Shown one piece after another: positions 4,212-28,600 of a stretch of 64,000 nt of DNA (position 1 is the first letter of the stretch; each line of letters opens with the position of its first letter). The stretch covers positions 32,984,001 to 33,048,000 of the forward strand of contig OZ231126.1 of assembly GCA_965153355.1 (NCBI GenBank), given 5' to 3'. A program made the translations under genes and the position numbers. A model generated the notes under the pieces. It saw only the letters and a program-made list of their open reading frames with translations, made no database searches and was not told where the DNA came from. This stretch comes from Flaccisagitta enflata (Eukaryota).

Positions 4212-4630
4212 TCATAAATTCGGCGTGTTCAGGCGAACCTTTTTCTTGTTATCGCAAATATTCAATTTCCGGCAAATCTTTTTGGCGCAACAATCTTTGT
4301 TGAAGCCGTTAACGTTTCCATCTAGTCCTTGAATGGAATCCTCTTCCCCATCGACGCCAGTGAATGTTTGATTGAGGTAGCTTTGATAGGCGGCGGTCGA
4401 TAACGGGCCCGCAGCCGCGGCCGTGTTTGAACCCGGGTAATTAGCGCGTGCTCCTCCCGGAGACTGTCTTCGTGGCGTTTGCAAGCGGTCTCTTCCCGCG
4501 ACAGAGTTTCCTTGCTTGGCCATGATCATTTCTTTGGACGCTTTGGACCAAGGATCCCCCATTTCTCCCGGCGCGTAATAGTTAGCCATCTCGTTCTGTG
4601 GTTGAAGAATGGGTCCAATTGTACGATCAT
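4212..4630 (-). CDS. Terminal exon: ...NEMANYYAPGEMGDPW...KVRLNTPNL*
   Basis: Open non-repetitive frame ending in TGA at 4212; CAG acceptors at 4630 or 4595. Confidence 0.75.
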
Positions 4631-25600: not shown

Positions 25601-28600
25601 GATGAGCCTTTCCTATGATTGTCCAGGCATCCTTAAAATTTTGTAGGGTTAGAAAATGATAGCACTATGATCCGTCTACAGCAGGATTCTCTACAAATTA
25701 AAGGGCTCGCCTTTTATATAGTTTTCAGTTTTCACACGTATCAAGCATTACCTACGCTAGGATTGCAGCAATAGTCCCAGTTGCTCTTTTTGTCGGTGTG
25801 ACACCAAAAGTAGTGATATCCTCCGTGGTGACAAAAGGAATCCTTGCGACACTTTTTGCCTCGAATTGTTCTGAAGGCAAGGATGATGAAATGAAACATA
25901 CTGGTGGTATTCTTATGTAGCCTATTGCGTAATACGTCAGAATGTGTACTGTGTTTAAAGCAAAGGGATAAGTCACTGATGAACTCTTGTCGCACAAACT
26001 GAACACAGAGTGGTCGAAAGGATTGGATTTGAAGTTCAAGAATTTTAATGGCGCTTGTAACTGACATTCCAGAGGATTCACGTCATTAAACTCCTTGGCC
26101 TTGCCTTCGGCCGCTATGCAGTCGATAATCGACGCAATCTTGGCCACAATCACAATAACTCGATCCTTTGCCGCAGCGGCGGAGAAGCATGTTGCAGCAA
26201 GGAGTTGAAGATTCAGCGTCGCATTCTGCAGAAGGGAACCACAGTCTTTTTCGGCATTGCACAGAGAGAGAGAGAGAGAGAGAGAGAGAGAGAGAGAGAG
26301 AGAGTCAAACATGAACGTATGCTATTCTCACCGCTGATATTTTTTCCATTTGGTGCGACAAAACCTCGACCACATCTTCCGTCTCCTCTCCAGGAATTCA
26401 TCACCCAACAACTGCCACCACCTCATAATAATTGTGAGAAAAAGTTGAAGAAGGAAAAGTAGGCCAACACGCGAGCCCGTTGGCTTGTCGTGTGAATGCA
26501 TCATCGAAGGGCAGATGCATGGTTGGACAATGTGACATGGCTTCTTTCAGACGTGCTTCGGGGTATGTCCAGAACTTATCAACCACACCATTCACCCTGT
26601 GGTCACCCTAAATTATGGAATTCGAGCATGTGACAATAAACGAATTTCCACCTTGCTGAAGGCACATCCACGGATGCTCCTCACATCGGGCTCCGGTCCA
26701 ACCAGGTAGACATTCGCATCGCCAGCGGACACCATCGCCTTTGGAATACTACTTGATTAAAACCATACTACGTAAAATTTAGGGTCCAATGAAGAAATAC
26801 GAAAAACGTAGAAGTCAGATAGGACAAAACGTTTTGCTTTGCAAAGAGATAAGGACAAACGAACGAACGGACGAACAAATTAATTTCTGGAAATCTAACC
26901 AGCTTTTGCCATTTCAGTTGGTGACTTGCGCTTGCATTTTCCGCGATTTCTGCACGGATTGTTGATGAGGGAGCAAGGATCGTCTTCGACTGACTGCCGC
27001 CGATCCAACGCCTCTTCGCAATAAAACCCTGAACGCCCCCTCGTAAACTTATTTGATGCTCGTCAAAAAGTTTCACTGCTGCAGTACTGCACTAAAATTT
27101 TCTCGTGACCAAGAAATCATGTCTGTCACCGTGTCTGTCTGTCTATGACTTTCTCTCTCTCTCTCTCTCTCTCTCTCTCTCTCTCTCTCTCTCTCTCTCT
27201 CTCTCTCTCTCTCTCTCTCTCTCTCTCTCTCTCTCTCTCTTTTTCTTCTCTCTTTCCCCCTCGATAGAAACTTGATGAGGAACAAGGCCAAGTTATGGCC
27301 AATATGTGCGCCTCGAATAGGGGAATGAACGATTTGAAAAAATGAATGAATGAATGAATAAACGACTGAATATAAATGAATATGGGATGGCTCGAGAGGT
27401 GGCAGGCATAGAAAGAGACAACGAATTATGCAGTTTTCTGCGGTTTTGAGGTTTGCGTGACGGACAGACCGACCAACCGACAGACAGACCTGACCTCCCA
27501 AAGATATGCGAGGACGCACATATTGATTGATAAGGAACTGACTGTACCCCACTACGTATGACAACTAATCACCGCAAATATCGCCCCGGGTCGGACAGAC
27601 TGACCGAGATTCCTTCTTGCATCGTGAACCGATATGTCACAGTGCAAACGAATACAAAATTTGACAAGTCAAAACGATTTATACGGTATTAATGGGGTCC
27701 AAAAAAGCTACAGAAACCCAAGTTGATAAGTCAGTGGCTTTGAGGATTGATACGGTAAGGTTTTCGACCCGTAGAATCCATTTCTGGGGTCAAAAAAGGC
27801 GAAATCTGGCGGGATCCCTTACCGCCATTGGCCCTGATCGAGCATATGGGCCCCGGAACGAGCATTTTGGCCATTTTTTTGCGATTTCAACTGATATTAG
27901 GGGTATTTTAGTTATTTCTGAATGAAATCCGACTAATCTAAGGCTGTAGAATTCAATAGAGATGGTCTGAGCGGTCTGTGATCATTACTTTGATGTAAAA
28001 CTGGCCCTGAATGAGCATTAGGGCCCCAAACATGCAGATTTTCCAGGTTTCATCTTTTCGGCGAAATATAAGCATAATCTCATACTCATAGAAATGCTTT
28101 TTTGGCAAAAATGAGGCTGCTTTGCTCATTTTTCTTTGAATTCCGTGTAGGTGGCAGAGGCCTTTATTCAAAGGGCTGTTTCAATTGTTGGGCAGGAGCA
28201 GTGATGCTAAAAATTGCTTCGAATACCTGAACAAGTTATATGTAAGAGGCAAAGCAGCCTAAACGATCTTATGGCAAAAATTGTATTTCAAAAGCCTTTG
28301 AAAGCAAAAAAATACTGATTCTCCATGAATCTCCATGAGCTCAAGCTTAGGTCATTTTTTTGGAGCAAGCCCGCGAGCTCTTTATATGGCTGTCGGGCAC
28401 TCACCTATTTTGTCTCTAAACCTTTCTGCACATGTATGTTAGTCCATCTCTGTGTGTTTGTCCATCTGTCCATCCATAAAATTTTTAAAACATTGTATTC
28501 TCTTTTTGACTTTTTTTTTGTGGTATAGCCTATACCAGGTTATCGCCCCTACCCAACCGTCTGTAACTTTTGCCCTGTTCAGTACTTGTTTTTGGATGCG

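Follow-up and report, generated by a model that had tools for sequence, protein, structure and literature searches.

A candidate mosaic EGF-rod receptor with three paired hevein-type and aromatic-rich modules in Flaccisagitta enflata

This study concerns a 64,000-nucleotide stretch of the Flaccisagitta enflata genome (NCBI GenBank assembly GCA_965153355.1, contig OZ231126.1, forward-strand positions 32,984,001 to 33,048,000), which we call the window and number from its first letter. With moderate confidence we conclude that the region 37103..4212 of its minus strand encodes one type I single-pass membrane receptor: a mosaic in which a rod of EGF domains carries three heads, each made of a hevein-type domain (H) and an aromatic-rich module (W), and whose ligand is more likely to be something other than chitin. 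Spliced from 22 exons, the gene reads as a single open frame of 1377 amino acids (aa) that is partial at its 5' end. The order of its parts is EGF x3-H1-W1-EGF x3-H2-W2-EGF x3-H3-W3-EGF x2, followed by a stalk, a transmembrane (TM) segment and a tail. A threefold super-repeat of EGF, hevein-like and W parts, arranged in this order from H1 to the tail, had been proposed in an initial annotation, and both the spliced frame and its colinear units bear it out.

Gene model and threefold super-repeat

The three units, U0, U1 and U2, each span about 280 aa and align colinearly, with 30% identity between U1 and U2 (299 columns), 28% between U0 and U1 (288 columns) and 26% between U0 and U2 (281 columns). 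Unit-against-unit blastp gave E-values of 4e-33 to 4e-23, which are inflated by cysteines because the composition correction was off. Colinearity at 26–30% identity indicates that the super-repeat is real and old. The intron positions within the H domains differ among the copies. Both H and W have retained their cysteine frameworks across the three copies at 31–42% identity, and we would argue from this retention that the heads are functional.

Exon borders were set by hand from the printed sequence, and all modules lie in minus-strand stop-to-stop open reading frames (ORFs). Every one of the 22 acceptors reads AG and each of the 21 internal donors GT; the exons join in phase, and the resulting frame is free of stops over 4134 nt. 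The stop codon occupies 4214-4212, position 4212 being its final base. Position 27028, where the gene had initially been thought to begin, is the first base of the third exon; two more EGF exons lie upstream (36659-36800 and 36936-37103), so that the first unit likewise has three EGFs. Joined in phase 1 over a 9.6-kb intron, 36659 and 27028 yield a canonical EGF end. A regular-expression scan of the whole window found no additional EGF, H or W exons beyond 37.1 kb or on the opposite strand. The window is eukaryotic, has about 40% G+C and contains many microsatellites.

The first unit opens with the 5' partial exon 1 (36936..37103), which encodes EGF-A, has AG/GT borders and scores 22.5 bits against PF00008 (cut-off 21.5). 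Exon 2 (36659..36800; 24.8 bits) holds a linker and the N-terminal part of EGF-B, whose end is encoded, together with the start of EGF-C, by exon 3 (26900..27028; a sub-threshold EGF match). Exon 4 (26652..26738) completes EGF-C, with EGF-type matches at E 1e-4 to 0.04, all under their cut-offs. Exon 5 (26332..26421) encodes a two-Cys linker and the N-terminal part of H1, beginning W-R-x-D-G-R-C-G, and exon 6 (26092..26225) the C-terminal part, which aligns with H2 and H3, contributes seven invariant cysteines and ends in a weak donor. The extra two-Cys stretch between the third EGF and H1 occurs in the first unit only (26332-26738, residues ~165-185). W1 occupies exon 7 (25756..25851), which has a weak acceptor, as a single unit of the kind that we describe below as a mini-kringle. 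A split, two-unit W1 was considered and dropped, as an exon for the second unit is absent between 25280 and 25756.

In the second unit, exon 8 (25136..25251) was recognized as an EGF by reading the sequence and from the unit alignment, and exon 9 (24757..24873) has a cEGF match at E 6e-4, under the cut-off. Exon 10 (24243..24489; PF00008 23.9 bits) encodes an EGF, a linker and the F-R-K-D start of H2. H2, with its eight cysteines, and the first cysteine of W2 are in exon 11 (22260..22463, the donor alternatively at 22242), and exon 12 (16568..16781) holds the two units of W2 and the start of the next EGF. The third unit continues with EGFs in exon 13 (16313..16450; PF00008 23.3 bits) and in exon 14 (15451..15697; EGF matches under cut-off), the latter also carrying the F-R-K-D-G start of H3. 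H3 itself is encoded by exon 15 (11300..11440). W3 is spread over exon 16 (part a, 10875..10987, donor alternatively 10850), exon 17 (part b, 10427..10538, acceptor alternatively 10561, placed by sequence reading and unit alignment) and exon 18 (9130..9318), which also contains an EGF (PF00008 25.7 bits).

The last EGF and the stalk were read from exon 19 (7749..8263), and the TM segment with its basic stop-transfer cluster from exon 20 (6733..6987), by reading the sequence and not with a TM predictor. Exon 21 (6243..6503) encodes a Ser/Asp/Asn-rich part of the tail. Exon 22 (4212..4630) provides the remainder and the stop, using 138 codons plus the stop of a 147-codon stop-to-stop frame. None of the stalk and tail exons matches a Pfam family. 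We also considered extending exon 21 through a Lys/Glu-rich stretch to a donor near 6046; this version was dropped because it would make no use of the 147-codon open frame in which the last exon lies. In the resulting protein the last EGF is followed by about 150 acidic, Ala-rich, charged residues, a hydrophobic stretch of about 18 residues, a Lys/Arg cluster and a low-complexity tail of about 278 aa, shorter than the roughly 350 aa first estimated. A basic cluster after the hydrophobic segment and a Cys-rich N-terminal part point to a type I orientation, given a signal peptide. Eleven EGFs were counted, of which nine match a strict pattern and two were read by eye. PF00008 exceeded its cut-off in 2 of 18 raw ORFs and in five of six trimmed exons.

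The H domain and chitin binding

Hevein-type domains are classic chitin binders of plants and fungi. The initial annotation had noticed hevein-like cysteine spacing in H, and profile searches agree with it. An alignment profile made solely from the three H copies of the window (A1; the first cysteine of H1 lies in another exon) matched two of 177,635 PDB sequences, 4zxm_A (E 1.1e-5) and 4z8i_A (E 1e-4), both of them the domain of BbtPGRP3, a peptidoglycan recognition protein of amphioxus. These were also the only two rows returned by phmmer with the H2 exon (E 0.28 and 0.65, respectively), and here the eight cysteines were colinear. Among 1.84e9 representative proteins A1 found 350 matches at E<=1e-3; 81 of them passed E<=1e-10 and 15 passed E<=1e-30, and many of the matched proteins are tandem arrays. 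PF00187 was present in 12 of 25 scanned A1 matches and covered identical residues in every case that allowed a comparison of the two best stretches.

A second alignment (A2) combined the three window copies with 22 short family matches. PF00187 was detected in 15 of its 25 members (best E 9e-11), and a search of PDB with A2 returned BbtPGRP3 (1.2e-21), then hevein, Urtica agglutinin (UDA), Phytolacca lectins (lectin-C) and Ac-AMP2; all 11 matches were hevein-type. The cysteines follow the hevein order C..C..CC..C..C..C..C, as a retained scaffold of four disulfides would predict, all eight align to BbtPGRP3, and seven are invariant in both A1 and A2. Once spliced, the H domains are 40–53% identical to family members over 53–64 columns (H1 47–53% over 54–64), including the upstream W/F-R-x-D-x-x part, a motif present in 266 of 438 family domains. 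In a wide structure search with a low-confidence model of H2, 4z8i_A was the sole chain with Z>=2 among 48,161 (Z 2.2, root-mean-square deviation 3.9 A, 49 aligned residues). The ESM Atlas offered for the H2 exon unnamed, mostly viral clusters at 0.80–0.84, which we regard as leads only. Judged from its sequence, H belongs, as a divergent member, to the hevein-type family of animals (ChtBD1 / CBM18, PF00187).

The receptor had been called lineage-specific, a description that does not hold for the H domain, with its 350 matches in a widespread family, and that may hold for W and for the overall architecture. Hevein-like domains in animals have been reported for amphioxus PGRPs (PMC4610682). A nematode study describes them in nematodes and lists database matches also from Branchiostoma and a few arthropods, including sea lice (PMC5297725). 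Two of the H-family matches (P0011 and P0024) combine several hevein-type domains with a rhodopsin-type seven-transmembrane domain, and in one case LDLa; they would be hevein-domain G-protein-coupled receptors.

The presence of this family would fit a receptor for chitin or for GlcNAc-containing glycans, acting in pattern recognition or adhesion, with the three H domains as canonical chitin binders. Elsewhere, members of the family are found in mosaic proteins of the GH18 chitinase, PGRP-amidase and lectin-rich kinds, and the solved amphioxus member binds chitin through a domain with the disulfides C27-C50, C41-C56, C49-C63 and C65-C68, according to the structural report (PMC4610682). There, Ser51, Trp53, Trp55 and His62 are given as the counterparts of the sugar-binding residues of Urtica agglutinin, and chitin binding is described as lost in a W53A/W55A double mutant (PMC4610682). 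The equivalent CC-x5-C loops of H1, H2 and H3 contain no aromatic residue, and in place of the Ser they have Asn, Asn and Gly, respectively. Within the family a five-residue CC-x5-C loop occurs in 310 of the 399 domains showing the core motif; Ser comes first in 263 of these 310 and Trp, Tyr or Phe last in 243. At least one loop aromatic is found in 304 of the 399 domains and none in 95, the minority to which all window copies belong. An aromatic residue is retained before the next (sixth) cysteine in H1 (Tyr) and H3 (Phe), where H2 has Asn. As H1–H3 are without the Ser and both Trp of the loop, canonical chitin binding by H is not supported by the sequence, and the chitin-binding receptor envisaged in the initial annotation would be without the two Trp whose mutation abolishes binding in BbtPGRP3 (PMC4610682). 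We therefore consider canonical chitin binding by these three domains unlikely, and return to a receptor whose heads would engage another ligand.

The W module

W1 shares 42% identity with the latter half of W2, and their alignment defines a unit of about 35 residues, C-x5-C ... W-C ... W-x-Y-C. W1 consists of one such unit, and W2 and W3 are pairs; each of the five units contains four cysteines except the first one of W2, which has three. In total W2 has 7 cysteines (one of them encoded by exon 11) and W3 has 8, and Tyr and Trp are highly abundant in W. The cysteines of the W-C ... W-x-Y-C motif are separated by 10–11 residues in three of the five units. Of the "8-Cys WC/WxYCC module" noted at first, the cysteine count thus stands for W3; W1 is a single unit, W2 falls one short, and the resemblance to kringles had gone unrecognized.

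The kringle has about 80 aa and six cysteines (1-6, 2-4, 3-5), and the fibronectin type II (FN2) module about 45–60 aa. When W2 was compared with PDB (E<=10), 13 of 14 matches were kringle proteins (best E 0.026), and a profile of the W unit returned kringles in 16 of 16 cases (best E 0.024). A hidden Markov model (HMM) built from 20 kringles of H-family matches aligned its positions 16-73 to W2. Its score for W1 (10.3) was reached by two of 1000 composition-preserving shuffles and that for W2 by one of 1000. By manual count, the cysteine spacing from first to last in W2 is 29, 16, 11, compared with 28, 11, 11 from Cys2 to Cys5 of a kringle. W is without the first kringle cysteine and approximately the first 20 residues, that is, the N-terminal third; it has extra cysteines, and it is duplicated or shortened. 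A four-Cys W unit would be compatible with the 1-3, 2-4 disulfide core of kringle and FN2 modules.

Searches for closer relatives of W were negative. Word-index searches with W2, the W2 exon and a further alignment (A3) found no homologues, which is weak evidence of absence, as the index needs three shared 5-mers. Five loci from a scan of metagenome contigs with W2 were rejected as relatives, their matches spanning just 11–18 residues. With phmmer, W1–W3 had no match at default filters among the 150 listed H-family proteins; with the filters off only sub-significant rows appeared, headed by a genuine kringle in P0109. Foldseek with the W2 model retrieved nothing at E<=0.001 (an FN2 module ranked 7, E 6.3), and the ESM Atlas gave one cluster at 0.82 in which 18% of the members carry fn2, a lead only. 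Whatever its ancestry, W is a small aromatic-rich module of a two-disulfide type that is in none of the described families searched, and the chances that it descends from the kringle appear about even.

The neighbourhood of H in other proteins strengthens the kringle reading. Eight of the 150 listed H-family matches contain kringles, 20 in total, and 10 of these kringles follow an H domain at a distance of no more than 60 aa; six of the eight proteins were looked up, and all six were from Branchiostoma. The H-W pair is probably derived from a hevein-kringle cassette, a version of which, with its kringle complete, survives in amphioxus mosaic proteins. A bolder proposal is that H-W constitutes a new composite cassette in which H gave up its aromatic sugar platform and W, as an undescribed family of tandem mini-kringles, took over the binding, perhaps of a glycan or polymer, in a receptor limited to one marine zooplankton lineage; we find this doubtful at present.

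How the receptor might work can be outlined only conditionally. The EGF segments would serve as rigid spacers that hold the three H-W heads off the membrane, and the heads could bind an extracellular partner multivalently. Given the loss of the sugar platform in H and the abundance of Tyr and Trp in W, contact would be expected through W or through the H-W interface. The partner would more likely be a protein or a non-chitin glycan bound via an aromatic surface of W than chitin bound via H, and the tail might couple binding to endocytosis or to phospho-dependent signalling.

Alternative readings, transcription and surroundings

Eleven EGFs and a single-pass topology could also be taken to indicate an EGF-repeat protein of the Notch pathway, similar to DNER or a non-canonical ligand, in which the EGFs bind and the H-W pairs are structural inserts. 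The pattern C2-x4-S/T-C3, which we take to be the O-fucose consensus, occurs five times inside EGFs and once after the last one, and three EGFs contain C1-x-S-x-P/A-C2, presumably the O-glucose consensus. However, the 18 ORFs and 12 exons scanned contained no LNR, ANK or LamG match, DSL reached 13.9–14.6 bits with a cut-off of 24.2, and MNNL was likewise absent from the scanned exons; the initial view that the gene is not a Notch, Delta/Serrate or Crumbs is upheld for these scanned parts. The retention of the H and W cysteine frameworks in three old copies argues for their use, and among the 150 listed H-family matches (of 350) there is no EGF array, let alone a colinear one, with three proteins having a single EGF-pattern match outside H. 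A Notch-type protein is in our opinion very unlikely, and the gene is better read as an EGF rod that presents H-W heads.

Transcript evidence came from four runs aligned to 8600-16829, a stretch chosen to be free of long satellites. A contig from the metatranscriptome run X10 joins 15451|11440 and 11300|10987, both GT..AG on the minus strand, so that the H3 exon is delimited on either side and an EGF exon is connected with H3 and W3. A second RNA contig covers 16707-16781, and a further 130 bases of it do not fit the stretch; the acceptor of W2 at 16781 predicts such an end. Four metatranscriptome runs contain 23–27% of the sampled words of the TM/tail stretch 4215-8283. DNA of the organism is present in runs that are labelled marine metagenome. 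The RNA test of the junctions suggested at the outset thus succeeded for the H3 borders and the W2 acceptor, and a polyA RNA run, of which 6% was read, yielded practically no reads on 8600-16829.

A number of observations weaken the case for the receptor. RNA supports just those three exon borders and, this support being partial, most junctions follow from sequence logic alone; the polyA run is nearly silent. Three junctions are ambiguous: 26092|25851, with weak sites and uncertain owing to the weak donor of exon 6; the exon 11 donor at 22260 or 22242; and 10875|10538 or 10850|10561. Exon 21 has the alternative donor near 6046 mentioned above. A heuristic scan of the minus strand from 37104 to 50000 found no convincing first exon with a start codon or signal peptide, which is why the topology had to be deduced. 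The ORFs containing H match no Pfam family at E<=1, the H2 exon none at E<=0.01, and the PF00187 gathering score is not reached; W has no Pfam match either, neither to Kringle nor to fn2. The kringle HMM score of W3 was reached by 397 of 1000 shuffles and is indistinguishable from them, and hhalign of W with kringle gave a probability of 31% over 21 columns. An AlphaFold/Foldseek check of the kind proposed initially was run on H2 and W2 and produced AF2 models of low confidence (predicted local distance difference test, pLDDT, 54.8 and 59.8, respectively), with no Foldseek match for H2 and no meaningful one for W2. The ectodomain has 117 cysteines, and the count in W2 is odd (7), for which reason one cysteine of the predicted ectodomain may be free or in an inter-chain bond. 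The Yxx-hydrophobic motifs and the acidic Ser-rich cluster of the tail were read by eye and come from no tool, and we infer, rather than observe, what the protein does, what it binds and how its tail acts.

Some of these points, namely RNA support at three borders, the nearly readless polyA run, the missing 5' end and two weak splice sites, together with a LINE fragment and long satellites in the introns, would fit exons that do not form one functional gene and belong to at least two neighbouring genes or a decaying pseudogene, with the frame an artefact of manual splicing; this is the least probable of the alternatives, as 22 pieces stay in phase with AG/GT borders and without a stop, split EGFs are exactly restored over introns of up to 9.6 kb, one RNA contig ties an EGF exon to H3 and W3, and roughly one in four words of the TM/tail stretch occurs in the RNA runs.

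The single receptor gene that we favour is surrounded and interrupted by other elements. The H2-W2 intron contains, on the opposite strand (19634-22128, plus), a fragment of a non-LTR retrotransposon with endonuclease (PF14529) and reverse transcriptase (PF00078) domains, which is frameshifted, as its domains are divided between two frames that overlap. A 1.1-kb minisatellite (16830-17954) with about 126 copies of a 9-base unit lies directly upstream of the W2 exon, and the intron before H2 contains another with 20 copies of a 20-base unit (23600-24000). Copies of a dispersed short repeat with a (GTCC)n-type tract lie in the introns and the flanking DNA (~4650-4870, 8600-8750, 22600-23150, 28580-29060 and elsewhere), and give rise to very high summed metatranscriptome contig depth at 8600-8874.

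On the same strand, a single open frame of 355 aa (37541-38608, minus) encodes a RING-variant domain (RING-CH, PF12906) and hydrophobic segments, the make-up of a MARCH-like E3 ligase. Some 440 bases separate its end from the first EGF exon downstream, and it is either a neighbouring gene or nested in the first intron of the receptor gene. Further upstream, 41665-55554 contains nested inverted repeats with 95–100% complementarity (for example 48334-49192 with 53427-54285, and 42140-42544 with 54678-55082), and a 100% direct repeat connects 50477-50776 and 55652-55951. Either a segment was recently duplicated in inverted orientation or the arrangement is an artefact of assembly.

Comparison with known proteins

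Automatic annotation would call this gene "Notch-like" or "fibropellin-like" and overlook H and W, because neither reaches a Pfam threshold. With Notch, DNER, Crumbs and Delta/Serrate it shares a type I topology and arrays of EGFs that do not look calcium-binding; it differs from them in that its EGF array is broken up by H-W pairs.

The closest counterpart of H is the hevein-like domain of BbtPGRP1-3 (4ZXM, 4Z8I), with which it has in common eight colinear cysteines, the terminal C-x-C-x-x-C-[VL]-D-[YF] and a long C-G N-terminal loop. In contrast to BbtPGRP3, the window copies are without Ser51, Trp53 and Trp55 and without a PF00187 match. The settings are also different, H being placed inside an EGF-rod membrane protein and the BbtPGRP domain before a PGRP amidase. 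If the H-W pair binds a ligand, a lectin scaffold would have been re-used for another specificity, and the kringle/FN2 group would gain a small disulfide module.

W resembles the kringle (PF00051) and FN2 (PF00040) modules in its W-C ... W-x-Y-C motif and in its PDB look-alikes, nearly all of which are kringles. Its unit of about 35 aa and four cysteines is smaller than a kringle (about 80 aa) or FN2 (about 45–60 aa), and unlike them it has no Pfam match.

The most similar arrangement is that of amphioxus mosaic proteins (for example KAI8510904.1, XP_019628305.1, XP_035697815.1 and XP_066292800.1, the last named "apolipoprotein(a)-like"), in which a domain of the H family is directly followed by a kringle; in the window gene, W stands in the place of the kringle. 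The amphioxus proteins carry full 80-aa kringles recognized by Pfam, whereas W is not recognized. They add F5/8C, PAN, CUB, LDLa, Ig and C-type lectin domains, where the window gene instead has EGF arrays. In the literature outside subscription journals we found no report of a combination of hevein, kringle and EGF, or of ChtBD1 in amphioxus. On present evidence, the gene is an interesting and unsurprising case of domain shuffling in a marine invertebrate: its parts are of known kinds save the poorly placed W, and their assembly, (EGF x3-H-W) x3 joined to a membrane anchor, seems not to have been described before, with the hevein-kringle mosaics of amphioxus as its nearest parallel.

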